From a virus (taxonomy: Duplodnaviria > Heunggongvirae > Uroviricota > Caudoviricetes): 25,637 nt of DNA. The stretch is from IMG/VR virus record IMGVR_UViG_2671181122_000005, positions 1-25,637 of that record, one strand, 5' to 3'. The translations under genes were made by a program, and so were the position numbers. Of this stretch, positions 1,003 to 12,646 are shown one piece after another. Each line of letters begins with the position of its first letter. Within the stretch, counting starts at the first letter, position 1. A model generated the notes under the pieces. That model was given only the letters and a program-made list of their open reading frames with translations. It was not told where the DNA came from and ran no database searches.

Positions 1003-1398
1003 CTACATAATTCGTTCTACATATCTGTCCATCTCCAGCCGGATATCAAGCATCATCAACATGCCATCGATAACCCCTTCCGCCTTCTGCAGGCGCTTAC
1101 CAACACAGGTATCCGAACATCCAAGTTTCCGTGCCAGACTCATAAAAGTCATTCCATATACGTAATAATCCACCAGCAAATCGTGCAAATCCTGATTTTT
1201 CTTGTTTAACCGGGCCATACAGCCACAAATTATCATTGCATCATCATCAGAACACTGAGGACGTGATTTCACTTTCGACGGAATTAACCCTTTAAAACCA
1301 GCAGCGATCGACGCCCAGGATACATCTTCATGAGTGTTTGCAACCCAAGCCCCCCACCGTTCCATAACCTGCTGAATATCACGCGCCATCGTTATCAC
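1003..1398 (-). CDS. quuD: Late antiterminator Q (QuuD/phage 82-type)
   Basis: The translation ([46 protein letters not shown]...) is very close to DLP12 QuuD as I recall it. The true start is probably the Met at 1389; the ORF overlaps the rusA stop. Confidence 0.85.
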
Positions 1399-3158: not shown

Positions 3159-3410
3159 TTATTCTTCTGCAAAAGCTGAAAAGCCTGCTTTTATTCCGAT
3201 CTCTTTCAGTGCCTGTAATGAAGTGACAAACTCACCTTCGCGCAAGATAAATCCGTCTGTCACTCGACCATCCACAAAATTAATTAACGCAGCCCCATTC
3301 TTTCGCAAACACATAATGCGGTAATGACTAACAAGATTTCCATTTTCAACGCACACAGCATAGAGGCCATCTTCACAAAAAATTTTACGCAGTTCTTCGA
3401 TGTTCATCAT
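3159..3410 (-). CDS. rem: Rem-like small protein (83 aa)
   Basis: 83-aa ORF immediately downstream (in minus-strand sense) of hokD, the position and size of Qin rem. No sequence-level confirmation was possible. Confidence 0.45.
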   Translation of the reverse strand: MMNIEELRKIFCEDGLYAVCVENGNLVSHYRIMCLRKNGAALINFVDGRVTDGFILREGEFVTSLQALKEIGIKAGFSAFAEE

Positions 3411-3626: not shown

Positions 3627-3782
3627 TTACTCCTCAGGTTCGTAAGCTGTGAAGACAGCGACCTCCGTCTGGCCGGTTCGGATTCGTACCTCGCAGAGGT
3701 CTTTCCTCGTTACCAGTGTCGTCACTATGACGGTTAAACAGATGACGATCAGGGCGATTAACATCGCCTTTTGCTGCTTCAT
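3627..3782 (-). CDS. hokD: Hok/Gef family type I toxin, HokD (RelF)-like, 51 aa
   Basis: The internal Met of the 70-aa ORF gives MKQQKAMLIALIVICLTVIVTTLVTRKDLCEVRIRTGQTEVAVFTAYEPEE, which differs from K-12 HokD at about one residue. Confidence 0.9.
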   Translation of the reverse strand: MKQQKAMLIALIVICLTVIVTTLVTRKDLCEVRIRTGQTEVAVFTAYEPEE

Positions 3783-4095
3783 AGCCTGCTTCTCCTTGCC
3801 TTCCGGCACGTAAGAGGCTAACCTACATGTGTCTAGCATGAAATTGGCCTCAGATTAATGTTAAGCGTCTTGCAGGACGCGTAATGTTAACTGGGGCTTT
3901 TCTCTATCTGCCTTTGGTGTTCATGCCTGAGACAGATAGCCTCAAGCACCCGCAGCCATTCTACTTAACTCCCGTTACCCCGCCAATATGAAATCAGTCA
4001 GAAAGGCGATCCATAAGAATAATGAATTCTGTAAGGCAATAGTCTCACTGTCTAACATATCTTACCTGATTACTTTACAATATAATAATTCATAG

Positions 4096-4740
4096 TTAAA
4101 TCAAATGAATGTCATCATCCAATAATTCATTAGTAGTAATACTACCTTTTTTGAAAAAATTTTCATTTGTCTCAGCAATTTTTGCATCATTAACAAATTC
4201 ATCACACATCCCAAAATAATGAAAAAATCTATTTAGTTTACATATTCCAATGGTATAGTGCCCTTTAGGTGTTTTGTCCACATAAACACGATTTGCTTTT
4301 ATAATATGCATCTCATAATCATCTATATGTGGATGAACGATGCGAAATGATGCAGATGCAGTTGGATAGTTTTTGCGCCGCCCCCCATTTATTACGGGTT
4401 CAAATAACACTTCATTTTTACCTTTGAATTCATTGCAGTCAGGACATACTACACATAGATTCTTAGGTTCAAAAATAAAACATAGATATTGAGATTTTGG
4501 CACAATATGCTCTATAGGAGCAGCTTGTGCAGCTCTTACCCCAATAGGCTCATGACAATATACACATTCTAGCTTTTGTTCTTCTCTGTAATGATTTCTA
4601 ATTTCTGCACGGAGAACTTGCAAATCATCATCTCCCCAGTTGGTATGCTTAAAATCTGGAGAAGACAATTTTTTCTCAATAATATCTAATGACTCTGCGC
4701 TGAATCTAATTGGATTTTTAATTTTTGGCATAAATTTCAC
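4096..4740 (-). CDS. HNH endonuclease (214 aa), PtuB-like partner of the upstream ATPase
   Basis: HNH/zinc-finger core: CVYCHEP (aa 59-65), EHIVPKS (aa 77-83), CVVCPDCN (aa 96-103). The start overlaps the ATPase gene by 23 nt. AT-rich codon usage. Confidence 0.75.
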   Translation of the reverse strand: MKFMPKIKNPIRFSAESLDIIEKKLSSPDFKHTNWGDDDLQVLRAEIRNHYREEQKLECVYCHEPIGVRAAQAAPIEHIVPKSQYLCFIFEPKNLCVVCPDCNEFKGKNEVLFEPVINGGRRKNYPTASASFRIVHPHIDDYEMHIIKANRVYVDKTPKGHYTIGICKLNRFFHYFGMCDEFVNDAKIAETNENFFKKGSITTNELLDDDIHLI

Positions 4741-6091
4741 ACACCTGAGATACGGAATTTACGAGTTCATTAATAGGGTCATTACTATTAACGTTTTCAA
4801 GGAGAAGTTGGAGTTGTTTTAATTCACGCCAATTATCATCTGTTACTAACTTAGCAGTCTTAACTTTTGAAAGTAAATTGAAAGCTAACCTGGCAATGTA
4901 TTCATTCATAATGCCAGGGGCATCAAATAGTTCCGCAAGTTGATAGTCTGCAGACCGGTTGCTAAAGTATTTTGCTTTATAAAGATAACTTTTCGACAAA
5001 GATGTTATATAACAACCTTTATTCGGCAAATTGGATATTATTTGTGGTGAATGAGTTGCAATTATGAATTGACAACCTGAGTAAGTTAAAAATGCTTTTG
5101 TTAACATAATGATAAACTCTTCCTGCCATCGAGGATGCAAGCTTATTTCCGGTTCATCAATTAATATTATAGAACCATCAGTTATATGCCCTGCAATTCC
5201 AAGCAACATCACTAATAAACATTGTTCTCCCGAGCTCGCACGTTTAAGTGACATGGGACCATAGCTTTTTTTTATGAGTCGCATATCCATCAATCTCATG
5301 AAGCCAGCGTTCATAAGTTTAAGAATTGATCTAGAAAAATAATTATTCGCATAAGTCGAGCCAACCAATGTTTCACCATTGGTAAAATCGACTGACAAGG
5401 TTACAGCCCTACGTTCAGGTTCAAATCGATTAATTTCAACCAGTGCTTCGTAAATATCATGACGTGATTCGGAGTTTAACTTTAAGAGACTCTCAATATT
5501 CTTCCTGTCAATTTTTATATTGTATTTTAAATATAACTCCTTAACTTCCGTTAATATCTCATCTGAATATACACCAATGAAGTTATAGTCAGGAGTGTCC
5601 GGTCCGTTGTAAGTTGGTTTAAATACAAACTCTATATGGGGCTCAAAATCAATAGAATGAAAAACATCGAGTAAATTTGCAGGATTTTCTGAATAAGCAA
5701 GTTTCTCTAGCCAACCTCTCGCTGCTGAAGATAAAAGGGATACGGCATTTGATACGCCGAAGGGGCCTTCTCCACGCATACCCACATAGCGATAATTATT
5801 TTCTTTCCTTTGGTGATTTAATGACCTACGCCCTGGAGGGAATTTATCGAATGGGCTGGTAGATACGGCAATTAACTTTGGTGTTATTTCTCTGTCAAAT
5901 AATGGATTAAAAGTTTTCAAGAAATGAACATCTTGAATACAGTCTTTAGCAATCTGAGATAACAATCTGCTTTTTCCAACGCCATTTTTACCTACAATTA
6001 CTGTAAAAATATTCGCATTATCAGAAACATCACCTTCTATAGCAAGTTTTAAGGTTCGACTATCATGATGGGTATAATATAGTCTTTTCAT
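4718..6091 (-). CDS. ABC/AAA_21-type ATPase (457 aa), PtuA-like
   Basis: Walker A GKNGVGKS (aa 34-41), signature-like SSGEQ (aa 286-290), Walker B IILIDEPE (aa 308-315), H-loop ATHS (aa 345-348), with a long insert between Walker A and the signature, as in SMC/RecF-like defence ATPases. Confidence 0.75.
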   Translation of the reverse strand: MKRLYYTHHDSRTLKLAIEGDVSDNANIFTVIVGKNGVGKSRLLSQIAKDCIQDVHFLKTFNPLFDREITPKLIAVSTSPFDKFPPGRRSLNHQRKENNYRYVGMRGEGPFGVSNAVSLLSSAARGWLEKLAYSENPANLLDVFHSIDFEPHIEFVFKPTYNGPDTPDYNFIGVYSDEILTEVKELYLKYNIKIDRKNIESLLKLNSESRHDIYEALVEINRFEPERRAVTLSVDFTNGETLVGSTYANNYFSRSILKLMNAGFMRLMDMRLIKKSYGPMSLKRASSGEQCLLVMLLGIAGHITDGSIILIDEPEISLHPRWQEEFIIMLTKAFLTYSGCQFIIATHSPQIISNLPNKGCYITSLSKSYLYKAKYFSNRSADYQLAELFDAPGIMNEYIARLAFNLLSKVKTAKLVTDDNWRELKQLQLLLENVNSNDPINELVNSVSQVCEIYAKN

Positions 6092-6503: not shown

Positions 6504-7072
6504 TTAGACTTCGATCGATTCAGAGATCTCTAATGCATCATCAACTTCTATACCCAGATAACGAACTGTGCTTTCCGTTTTCTTATGGCCCAACGGAAGT
6601 TGGATCACCCGGAGATTCTTAGTTTTCTTGCAGACAAGGCAAGGTTTTGTTCTTCTCATGGAATGTGTGCTGTAAAGCGAATCTTCGAGACCAAGCTTTT
6701 CTCCCCCCTATGAAAGATTCGGTTATATTGCAGGATTGATATGTGTTGGTTAGTACCGACCCGAGATCGGAACAAGTAGTCTTTACTGCGTAAATTGCCA
6801 AGCTTTATCAATGCAGAAACAGCTTCTCTTGTCCCTTTGGTTATCTCAAATTGGATAGGACTGCCAGTTTTTCAGTTGCAGCACCGTAGCTCTGCTTGAA
6901 ACCGAGCTAAATCACGCGTTTTACCTTCCAGTTCAAGCCGGATTTGGAGCCCCCAGATATGAGATATCTGAAGTGGTCTTTTTGGGCCTATGATACTGTC
7001 TTTGTTCCTCGGTGACGTATTCATACTCAAATCTCCTGCAATGTGGAAGATTTGAGTATGGTTGTCTCTCAA
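6504..7072 (-). pseudogene. Frameshifted small tyrosine recombinase (FimB/FimE-size) remnant
   Basis: Minus-strand frame ending at 6504 encodes ...LYSTHSMRRTKPCLVCKKTKNLRVIQLPLGHKKTESTVRYLGIEVDDALEISESIEV*, with the HxxR...LGH...Y catalytic C-terminal pattern. Upstream pieces sit in two other frames (ORFs 6619..6801 and 6872..7072), with one shift at a C6/G6 homopolymer (6703-6708). Confidence 0.45.
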
Positions 7073-7125: not shown

Positions 7126-7971
7126 TTAATTATTGACAATAAAAATTCTGGAATGTTCGAAATCATCATATCGAATTATAATCTGGTTGACTGCATCTAT
7201 TGTTGGCGCCATTTCAGTTATAATATCTCGATAACCTAAAGAGTTAAATACATTTACTAAGGCCTCACACCGCAGGCCAATAGCAATTACGACATTATAA
7301 ATTGCCAGCCGTTTATTTTCTTGTTTAACTGCAAGAGTGAGTTCGATAGCAGTAGTTTTATCGCTTTGGATTGCATTATATAGAGATACTATATTTGCCA
7401 TATCATCAGAGAATGTATGTATTGAATCACAAAGAGGGACGTAATAGGCATGATAGTGTGTTTCCCAGCCAATTACTTCGAAAAGCTTTTTGGTTCCAGG
7501 ATATTCAGGTGTATTTGGCCACAATCTATTAAACATATCAGTTAGCTCTTTTCCGATACGAATCCTTTCATCTGCTGCTGGATTAGTCATTTCTTTGGAT
7601 TTTAAACACTCCAGCCACCGTTTCCCATTACTATGAACTAATTTCTTACTACCCTTGAGTAATGCTTGTGCATTTTTTCCATCATCAATTGCTATATAAA
7701 ATTGATTGGCAGCCTGTTCCATTATAACTCTAGTTAATACTTCCGATGCTGAAAAGGCTCCGGTACTCAAAGAAAATATAGCCTGATTACTAAGTTCATT
7801 CAGTACATTAAAGTAATGTAAAACCATCAATTTTTGTTCCACCCCCTTTAGGTTATCTATTTTATTTTTATGCCTCTCAAATTTCGCATGGATATATTTA
7901 TTTATCGCGGCTATTTTTTTTACATCTTCGTCGAAATCAAACGGGCAACGTCCAAACGATTTTTTCCTCAT
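7126..7971 (-). CDS. Hypothetical protein (281 aa), unassigned; candidate accessory/defence gene
   Basis: Long AT-rich ORF in the accessory block. No family recognised. The C-terminus has an Rx5H-type motif (RYDDFEH) that could be HEPN-like. Confidence 0.6.
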   Translation of the reverse strand: MRKKSFGRCPFDFDEDVKKIAAINKYIHAKFERHKNKIDNLKGVEQKLMVLHYFNVLNELSNQAIFSLSTGAFSASEVLTRVIMEQAANQFYIAIDDGKNAQALLKGSKKLVHSNGKRWLECLKSKEMTNPAADERIRIGKELTDMFNRLWPNTPEYPGTKKLFEVIGWETHYHAYYVPLCDSIHTFSDDMANIVSLYNAIQSDKTTAIELTLAVKQENKRLAIYNVVIAIGLRCEALVNVFNSLGYRDIITEMAPTIDAVNQIIIRYDDFEHSRIFIVNN

Positions 7972-11484: not shown

Positions 11485-11540
11485 TTGAGTTTTCTCATTA
11501 AAAGTACTTGACCAATATTCATGAGAAAACTAAATTACGA
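11485..11540 (+). promoter_or_regulatory. Putative DicA-repressed promoter of the ydfA-dicF-dicB operon (operator TTGAGTTTTCTCA, -35 TTGACC, -10 TAAATT)
   Basis: Operator-like repeat at 11485-11497, followed by TTGACC (11508-11513), a 17-bp spacer and TAAATT (11531-11536). Confidence 0.4.
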
Positions 11541-11613: not shown

Positions 11614-11766
11614 ATGGATACTATCGATCTTGGCAACAACGAATCTCTGGTGTACGGCGTGTTCCCCAACCAGGGCGGTACGTTCACCGCGATGACATAT
11701 ACCAAAAGCAAAACGTTTAAAACCGGATCTGGCGCGCGTTGCTGGTTAGCCAGAAACACTGACTGA
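11614..11766 (+). CDS. ydfA: YdfA-like small protein (50 aa)
   Basis: The internal Met, with a GAGG SD, gives MDTIDLGNNESLVYGVFPNQGGTFTAMTYTKSKTFKTGSGARCWLARNTD. Size and position match K-12 ydfA. Confidence 0.6.
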   Translation: MDTIDLGNNESLVYGVFPNQGGTFTAMTYTKSKTFKTGSGARCWLARNTD

Positions 11767-12143
11767 TGAGGCTGACGATGGAATTTAAAGATTTACCGTC
11801 TGATGTACAGAAAACAGCAGCTCATACATTGCATTCTGTGCTGCGAGAAATCGGGAAAGATATTGCAAGCGAGCCAGCAAAAGATCTGGCCCGGAAAATC
11901 AAGACCGCTTTCGTTGAGCTTTATAATGTTGGCACTGACTCTGAAACTGTCGAGACCAAGACCGTAAGTTCACCAATATTCTCACTTGAGCCAAGCGTAT
12001 TATCAGGTGAAATATGCACCGAGATTTCCAGCGAACTGCTTCCGGTAATACGAGAAGCAATTTGCCGTCGCGGTTTGGATGGAAGTTACGATCATGACGT
12101 CCTGCAAGTTCTCAGGACAATGGTGACTTCACTGGGGATTTGA
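11766..12143 (+). CDS. YdfB/YdfC-like protein (121-125 aa)
   Basis: ORF overlapping the ydfA stop (TGATG). An alternative start at 11778 has a GAGG SD. It occupies the ydfB-ydfC position upstream of dicF. Confidence 0.55.
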   Translation: MRLTMEFKDLPSDVQKTAAHTLHSVLREIGKDIASEPAKDLARKIKTAFVELYNVGTDSETVETKTVSSPIFSLEPSVLSGEICTEISSELLPVIREAICRRGLDGSYDHDVLQVLRTMVTSLGI

Positions 12144-12312
12144 TCCCTGCGTCCTCTAACCTTTTGATATAGCGGTCCTCCAAGAAGCGGTAAATTTTGT
12201 CGAAATCATCTTTCCCCTCTGGTTTATTCAGAGGATTACAGGACCCGTAAGTAGCGGCATACATTTCAACCGTTTTATCAAAAATATAAGAGACAAATTC
12301 TTCTTTAGTCAT
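12112..12312 (-). CDS. Small convergent ORF (66 aa) with a strong SD, inside the dicB operon region
   Basis: ATG at 12312 preceded by AAGGAAATCTAT, encoding MTKEEFVSYIFDKTVEMYAATYGSCNPLNKPEGKDDFDKIYRFLEDRYIKRLEDAGIKSPVKSPLS. No family recognised. Confidence 0.35.
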   Translation of the reverse strand: MTKEEFVSYIFDKTVEMYAATYGSCNPLNKPEGKDDFDKIYRFLEDRYIKRLEDAGIKSPVKSPLS

Positions 12313-12587
12313 ATAGATTTCCTTCTTGGTTATTCGGGATAAGAAGGATACCACCTCGCCTGACGTGGTTAAAAGCAGGCACACAACACGAAAGCGCACG
12401 GCGAAGTTCGTCTCACTGTACGGTGTCGTTAAATTTAATTCGACCGTGCGCTTCCGGTTGTGGCAACCCGCGAAATGGCGCGGCGGTAAGTATGGCGGGG
12501 TTATTCCTTCCCCCGTTGAGGACACCGGGTTGTCAGGTTGACCATACGCTTAAGTGACAACCCCGCTGCAACGCCCTCTGTTATCAA

Positions 12588-12646
12588 TTTTCTGGTGACG
12601 TTTGGCGGTATCAGTTTTACTCCGTGACTGCTCTGCCGCCGTTTTT
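12588..12646 (+). ncRNA. dicF: DicF small regulatory RNA (ftsZ-targeting sRNA)
   Basis: TTTCTGGTGACGTTTGGCGGTATCAGTTTTACTCCGTGACTGCTCTGCCGCC followed by a T-run matches the K-12 DicF sequence as I recall it. It lies between ydfC and dicB as expected. Confidence 0.85.

Follow-up and report, generated by a model that had tools for sequence, protein, structure and literature searches.

An uncharacterized antisense accessory gene in the early-left operon region of a lambda-like prophage and its co-inherited convergent partner domain

The minus-strand ORF at 12112..12312 of the prophage sequence analyzed here (IMG/VR record IMGVR_UViG_2671181122_000005, taken over its whole length of 25,637 nucleotides and hereafter called the window) is almost certainly a genuine protein-coding gene of lambda-like prophages. 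Comparison of its diverged copies indicates that the encoded 66-aa protein is under purifying selection. We consider it best filed, as an uncharacterized member, among the antisense accessory genes of the lambdoid immunity/early-operon region. Its only unusual feature is a convergent partner domain that is inherited together with it. The elements of the gene itself are:

12112..12312, minus strand: small gene, 66 aa (WP_000159335.1, phrog_34441), identified from PGAP annotation, dN/dS and an AlphaFold2 model
12324..12320, minus strand: Shine-Dalgarno AAGGA, 7 nt 5' of the small-gene ATG
12112..12143, both strands: tail-to-tail coding overlap of 32 nt between the 3' end of the small gene and the 3' end of a 121-aa gene

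The 66 codons run from an ATG at 12312..12310 to a stop at 12114..12112, and the product begins and ends as MTKEEFVSYIFDK...VKSPLS (complete translation: MTKEEFVSYIFDKTVEMYAATYGSCNPLNKPEGKDDFDKIYRFLEDRYIKRLEDAGIKSPVKSPLS). The first-pass annotation of this DNA had described a 66-aa ORF preceded by AAGGA, convergent with the plus-strand gene upstream and overlapping its 3' end. Coordinates and Shine-Dalgarno position were re-read in the sequence and agree with that description, and the overlap measures 32 nt. The ORF listing contains many antisense ORFs of comparable length in the window. An antisense ORF of such length is therefore unexceptional by chance, and it is the comparative evidence that decides, not the ORF alone. 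A GTG-extended version of 137 aa (to 12525) was considered and dropped because the part upstream of the ATG is not conserved. All copies of the gene share the N-terminus MT(K/N)EEFV, 5' of which there is no conservation at the protein level, and the Shine-Dalgarno is AAGGA or GGGAGG in the seven of seven loci aligned.

The gene is not new to the databases. The homology search that had been suggested by the first-pass annotation found the ORF already listed as a hypothetical protein both in RefSeq (WP_000159335.1, an identical sequence named by PGAP) and in PHROGs, where phrog_34441 (function unknown) matches the small protein over its full length (1-66 of 66, E 1.5e-50). A prophage located beside yccA in E. 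coli Z1322HEC0003 is 100% identical to the window, and the ORF there carries the same PGAP annotation. WP_000159335.1 is also annotated in O111:H- 11128, in derivatives of E. coli B, in REL606 (ECB_RS08150) and in BL21(DE3) (ECD_RS08100); in the B strains the gene is located in the Qin prophage. Its DNA is present in 398 of 5426 complete E. coli genomes, every match being at least 99% identical, and in the phage record mEp460_ev081. K-12 is without it: homology to the K-12 Qin prophage ends at 11757, which is the end of ydfA, and restarts at 12371. The first-pass annotation knew of no gene in this position in K-12, and the interruption of Qin homology bears this out. Scans of the small protein and of its partner with Pfam, NCBIfam and PADLOC gave nothing above threshold, and PHROGs returned families of unknown function only. 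Our literature search found no paper mentioning WP_000159335.1, and the dicF and ydfC papers that it did find concern K-12 only.

The family is very small. A word-indexed search of 5.8 billion proteins returned 19 matches to the small protein, and 13 matches to its profile came from an exhaustive HMM search covering 1.8 billion cluster representatives. Ten of those 13, at E<=1e-10, are close relatives, fragments or chimeras; a 73-aa protein (P0022) is the sole more distant full-length homologue in the exhaustive search. The three weakest matches were multi-stretch alignments to long proteins and were treated as noise. Diverged copies of the small protein include two at 88-89% identity (P0004, P0005), one from Cedecea at 73% (P0011) and two at 54-57% (P0018, P0019). 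Two further sequences (P0009 and P0015, at L075 4001-4045 and L076 1957-2001) are truncated or chimeric: they match the small gene at 100% identity over its first 15-44 codons only, beyond which the sequence is unrelated, and look like the remnants of recombination or deletion junctions within the gene. Three contigs that contain the gene and its partner at 91-100% identity come from metagenome-assembled genomes labelled Veillonella parvula, 'Proteobacteria bacterium' and Geobacteraceae (L017, L018 and L019); they are probably E. coli-type prophage contigs that were mis-binned.

Conservation and codon substitution, the checks proposed in the first-pass annotation, proved informative. The frame is kept in copies at 54-89% identity, and dN/dS is 0.08-0.28 among six copies down to 54% identity (Nei-Gojobori, for pairs with estimable dS). 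Twenty-eight residues are invariant in an alignment spanning 54-98% identity. The opposite strand cannot account for this constraint because just the last 32 nt of the gene overlap another gene. Between the small protein and the artefact that had been left as alternatives, it is therefore the protein that is favored by the PGAP and PHROGs entries, the dN/dS values, the conserved Shine-Dalgarno and a conserved block further upstream. A chance ORF or antisense over-annotation from which no product is made, to which the abundance of similar antisense ORFs and the lack of a match to any family with known function might have pointed, is very improbable and close to refuted, given a frame, start, Shine-Dalgarno and upstream block that are kept down to 54% identity, a dN/dS far below 1 that the 32 shared nucleotides cannot explain, and the existence of the distant 73-aa homologue.

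The AlphaFold2 model of the small protein is a confident two-helix hairpin (H3-22 and H31-54; mean pLDDT 82.8), whose tail (...VKSPLS) is modeled with lower confidence. Both helices are amphipathic, and the protein is acidic, hydrophilic and soluble (pI 5.3, GRAVY -0.68). Foldseek searches of the model against PDB and BFVD gave no match at E<=0.001; the fold, a helical hairpin, is too simple. A profile search against PDB sequences gave no match either.

The convergent partner and the cassette that carries both genes

The small gene lies within a mosaic cassette, the parts of which are:

11778..12390, both strands: mosaic cassette of about 610 bp (partner, small gene and promoter), replacing K-12 ydfB-ydfC
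11778..12143, plus strand: partner gene of 121 aa (phrog_33007), second in the dicBp early-left operon
11985..12140, plus strand: C-terminal domain of the partner, E.LP..I..G..G.Y...V...M..SLG, which always accompanies the small gene

The partner had been called ydfB/C-like. This holds for its position, with ydfA on one side and the dicF precursor region on the other, but not for its sequence, since comparison with K-12 YdfB and YdfC gave no BLASTP match even at E<=100 and no DNA homology. In K-12 Qin the same position is occupied by ydfB-ydfC, two co-directional small genes with no antisense gene and no DNA or protein homology to the cassette. The partner consists of an N-domain (aa 1-55), a low-confidence linker, which is probably disordered judging from the model, and a C-domain (aa ~75-121). 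Its model is of low confidence (pLDDT 58.5, from a shallow alignment) and places two helices in the C-domain. The protein has a GRAVY of -0.04 and two amphipathic helices, with no hydrophobic membrane segment evident.

It is the C-domain, of about 50 aa, that stays with the small gene. It is convergent with the small gene and overlaps it in 70 of the 70 loci with a full-length small gene, and the overlap between small gene and partner ranges from 32 to 56 nt across the contexts examined. In two of these loci (L003 and L010) the C-domain is fused to a different, unrelated N-terminus. In Cedecea (L004 and L005) it forms an ORF by itself, which has an AGGAG ribosome-binding site of its own and is located between cro and a cII-like gene. 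One of the Cedecea C-domain ORFs (L004 3568-3897, minus strand) has lost its stop after ...SLGV and runs 55 codons further, so that the read-through crosses the whole small gene antisense to it and gives a 109-aa ORF; gene callers picked the small gene. In the C-domain, dN is 0.2-0.9 for distant pairs, far below a saturated dS, omega is 0.14 for L003 versus L010, and the omega of 0.6-1.0 found for close pairs rests on very few substitutions and is uninformative. A profile search with the C-domain gave no match.

The N-terminal ~55 aa of the partner (11778-11942, plus strand) behave differently and recur in many prophage proteins with unrelated C-termini. Their consensus is MEFKELP.DVQKTAAHTLHSVLR.IGKDI..EPAK.LA..IK.AF.ELY. 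In other prophages of enterobacteria (P0044-P0047) this N-terminus is followed by one of at least four unrelated C-terminal regions, and it matches four further PHROGs. It seems to be a common N-terminal module whose C-termini can be exchanged.

The limits of the cassette can be read from two kinds of comparison. Homology to K-12 Qin breaks at 11757 and 12371, and nucleotide homology to three relatives with unrelated flanks (L007, L008 and L019) extends from 11778, the ATG of the partner, to 12387-12399. The homology being bounded in this way, the unit that moves is about 610 bp long and comprises the partner, the small gene and its promoter. In all contexts the partner reads in the direction of an early lytic operon, and the small gene reads against it. 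In the window and in five relatives (L003, L007, L008, L010 and L013) this is the early-left operon, next to a repressor of the DicA or S24 CI type; in Cedecea (L004) it is the rightward cro-cII operon. Whatever the repressor type, the cassette is never further than one to two genes from a repressor or cro gene. The distant homologue P0022 (in L013) is likewise tail-to-tail with the first early-left gene and beside a repressor gene; its 63-aa partner has no detectable relationship to the C-domain (hhalign E 0.31). In the two relatives at 54-57% identity, the early-left operon contains a tRNA gene downstream of the cassette (L003 4953-5025 and L010 3968-4040, both on the minus strand). In the window, dicF occupies that side of the cassette, though at a much shorter distance.

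Predicted transcription of the small gene and its relation to DicF

The elements relevant to transcription in this region are:

12345..12373, minus strand: predicted small-gene promoter, with extended -10 TGgTATCCT at 12353..12345 and weak -35 TTTAAC at 12373..12368
11508..11536, plus strand: dicBp-like early-left promoter, TTGACC-17-TAAATT, a consensus match only
12389..12457, plus strand: stem-loop in the operon RNA (-27.8 kcal/mol, z -2.3), containing the putative RNase III site
12590..12641, plus strand: DicF sRNA (Rfam RF00039, 72.5 bits), outside the cassette

Alignment of the 110 nt 5' of the small-gene ATG from seven diverged loci revealed a block, GGTGnTAyCCTT, that is invariant in all seven and lies about 30 nt 5' of the Shine-Dalgarno. 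It is present even in Cedecea, despite flanks that are otherwise unrelated. The block may be read as an extended -10 promoter of the small gene, weak in appearance, and a simple -35/-10 consensus scan did not call it. Transcription would start near 12336-12340 and leave a 5' UTR of about 25 nt. An inverted repeat in the promoter spacer (ACCAC-N10-GTGGT) was considered as an operator or hairpin and dropped, being out of register in L007 and L004. A search for an intrinsic terminator 3' of the small gene on the minus strand found none. We think it somewhat more likely than not that the small gene is expressed in the lysogen from this predicted promoter. The dicBp-like promoter of the window faces it at a distance of about 810 nt, and across contexts the promoter-like sites of the early operon face it at 440-810 nt.

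In K-12, DicF is processed from the polycistronic RNA that starts at dicBp, RNase III giving a 190-nt species and RNase E the 53-nt form (PMC10448788). If placed by the length given in that paper, the 5' end of the 190-nt species would be near 12452 in the window. The predicted small-gene transcript starts about 115 nt upstream of that position and heads away from it. It would then be antisense to the upstream part of the operon RNA only, and to neither DicF species. The first-pass annotation had the small ORF facing the dicF region, which reverses the arrangement: it is the 5' end of the gene and its predicted promoter (12345-12373) that are nearest to dicF, and transcription is directed away from it. 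The related suggestion that the transcript would be antisense to the DicF precursor can be kept for the long polycistronic RNA initiated at dicBp, but not for the 53-nt DicF or for the 190-nt product as placed here.

The adjacency to dicF is incidental, a by-product of the site where the cassette landed, because the seven diverged cassette-bearing relatives that were scanned, representing six contexts, gave no DicF match. Among the relatives scanned, a match was found only in the near-identical phage mEp460_ev081. A functional tie between the small gene and DicF was rejected on this count (none of seven). The location nevertheless matters for comparisons between strains. About 7% of complete E. 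coli genomes, including those of the B strains REL606 and BL21(DE3), have the cassette in place of the ydfB-ydfC segment. When K-12 DicF/DicB regulation is carried over to such strains, it should be considered that a cassette gene is likely transcribed against the operon.

Possible roles of the small protein

We tentatively propose that the small protein is made in the lysogen, is silenced by convergent transcription, and neutralizes the C-domain of the partner; taken as a whole, we give this proposal somewhat less than an even chance. The small gene would be transcribed in the lysogen from its own promoter with weak -35 and extended -10, while the DicA homologue, the repressor in this prophage, would keep the early operon silent. 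Firing of the early promoter would switch the small gene off through convergent transcription and 3' RNA overlap, and the partner would be made, so that the two products would be expressed in opposite states. The acidic two-helix small protein might bind and neutralize the two-helix C-domain, acting as an antitoxin-like safety catch against leaky or incoming expression of the early operon.

The functional coupling of the two proteins is the more doubtful element, possible but appreciably short of even. In its favor, the C-domain stays with the small gene throughout (70 of 70 loci), whether fused to an unrelated N-terminus (L003, L010) or standing alone (L004). In addition, the cassette boundaries coincide with mosaic junctions, and the distant 73-aa homologue retains the tail-to-tail arrangement beside a repressor gene. 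Against it, the co-occurrence could reflect the physical linkage of overlapping genes and not function. If the pair is coupled and its expression mutually exclusive, it would represent a portable control or exclusion module added to lambdoid immunity regions. As it stands, the small gene is an uncharacterized, ordinary-looking prophage accessory gene.

Another reading, which we find rather unlikely, is that the small gene is an independent moron expressed in the lysogen from the slot used by sieB, whose product would need no partner to act on a target in the host or in an incoming phage, for example in superinfection exclusion, defence or some other lysogenic conversion, and that the partner is a mere neighbor. 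The immunity region is known to harbor exclusion genes of the rexAB, sieB and BstA types. In lambda, sieB (34482..35036, plus strand) is convergent with and abuts N (35037..35438, minus strand), the first gene of the early-left (PL) operon, and in the lysogen it is transcribed from a promoter of its own. The slot and orientation seen in lambda, P22 and Rac, antisense within the early-left operon and convergent with its first gene or genes, are those of the small gene. The constant proximity of the cassette to a repressor or cro gene, and the presence of other accessory modules in the same prophage (Septu and hok/sok), also fit this reading. Likewise, the cassette is present or absent between flanks as a moron would be, replacing ydfB-ydfC relative to K-12 and standing between unrelated flanks in L007, L008 and L019. 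As for autonomous expression, the extended -10-like block of the seven diverged loci would be its own promoter, albeit one missed by the consensus scan, and the minus strand beyond the gene showed no intrinsic terminator.

The likeness to sieB does not extend to the proteins. SieB proteins have roughly 160-190 aa and hydrophobic segments. SieB is a membrane protein and much larger, 184 aa in lambda (a 555-nt CDS) compared with the 66 aa of this soluble and acidic product, and the two have no similarity of sequence or fold. Nothing above noise came out of a tblastn comparison of the small protein with the sieB region of lambda. Homology to SieB was rejected on the lack of a family match together with the size, GRAVY (-0.68) and pI (5.3) of the small protein, which moreover resembles no PADLOC, Pfam or NCBIfam model. 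Finally, sieB differs from the small gene in that here a tail-to-tail partner domain is co-inherited, and a moron reading leaves unexplained why, in three contexts that are otherwise unrelated, the C-domain is found with the small gene.

Alternatively, the role could be exerted at the level of RNA or transcription, head-on transcription damping a leaky early-left operon by interference, or by antisense pairing and RNase III, with the protein being secondary. In the prophage of the window, DicF and DicB, both toxic, would be restrained as well. Every context has the small gene antisense to an early lytic operon, the two promoters face each other, and a transcript for which a terminator was not found may reach far into the operon. 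The dicBF operon is, moreover, toxic, under layered control and processed by RNase III (PMC10448788). We nevertheless regard this as an improbable main role. Low dN/dS, a strong and conserved ribosome-binding site and a confident fold show that the protein counts in its own right. In addition, DicF is absent from most prophages with the cassette, and the small-gene promoter looks weak. Damping of this kind is compatible with the lysogen-expressed neutralizing protein that we prefer and does not exclude it.

Phage switches offer a parallel for such a layout. In the pR/pL pair of coliphage 186 and the OOP-cII pair of lambda, convergent units belong to opposite states of the life cycle and one can suppress the other, in a face-to-face arrangement like that of the small gene and the early operon. 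However, those switches involve repressor or cII genes or a non-coding RNA, whereas the antisense unit here encodes a protein under selection. The small-gene unit also lies 440-810 nt from the lytic promoter, and interference between the two is putative.

Toxin-antitoxin systems are the other natural comparison for a lysogen-expressed protein that would neutralize its partner. The txpA/RatA and bsrG/SR4 pairs of B. subtilis prophages are type I systems with convergent units overlapping at their 3' ends. The tail-to-tail overlap is common to both arrangements, although here it comprises 32-56 nt between ORFs. Type I toxins are small hydrophobic membrane peptides, in contrast to a partner of 121 aa with a GRAVY of about 0 and two amphipathic helices, and type I antitoxins are non-coding antisense RNAs, in contrast to an mRNA that encodes a protein under purifying selection. 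A type II system was rejected, the genes being convergent and not co-directional and neither protein having a match in Pfam, PADLOC or NCBIfam. It would go further to regard the pair as an undescribed two-gene module, in which convergent and 3'-overlapping genes for helical proteins are expressed in mutually exclusive fashion and the small protein (possibly with its mRNA as antisense) neutralizes an early-operon effector. We think this quite unlikely. If true, it would represent a new lysogeny safety catch or toxin-antitoxin-like switch that fits into either early operon of lambda-like phages.

Other features of the prophage

Several other elements of the window were recorded, among them a Septu defence pair (4096-6091, minus strand) located between the replication genes and hokD:

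4718-6091, minus strand: PtuA, AAA ATPase (PADLOC E 1e-165)
4096-4731, minus strand: PtuB, HNH (PADLOC E 1e-83)

Rfam sok adjoins hokD, and isrK and the C4 antisense RNA with its a1/b1 target (Rfam) are located just upstream of the Q antiterminator gene (1003-1389, minus strand); these RNA features lie at 775-975 and 3627-3951, both on the minus strand. A rem gene is found at about 3159-3410 (minus strand); in K-12, rem is the antirepressor of DicA. Between the replication genes and the Septu pair there is also a DUF5677 gene (7126-7971, minus strand) together with a frameshifted pseudogene of a second tyrosine recombinase (~6504-7024, minus strand), which suggests a nested insertion.
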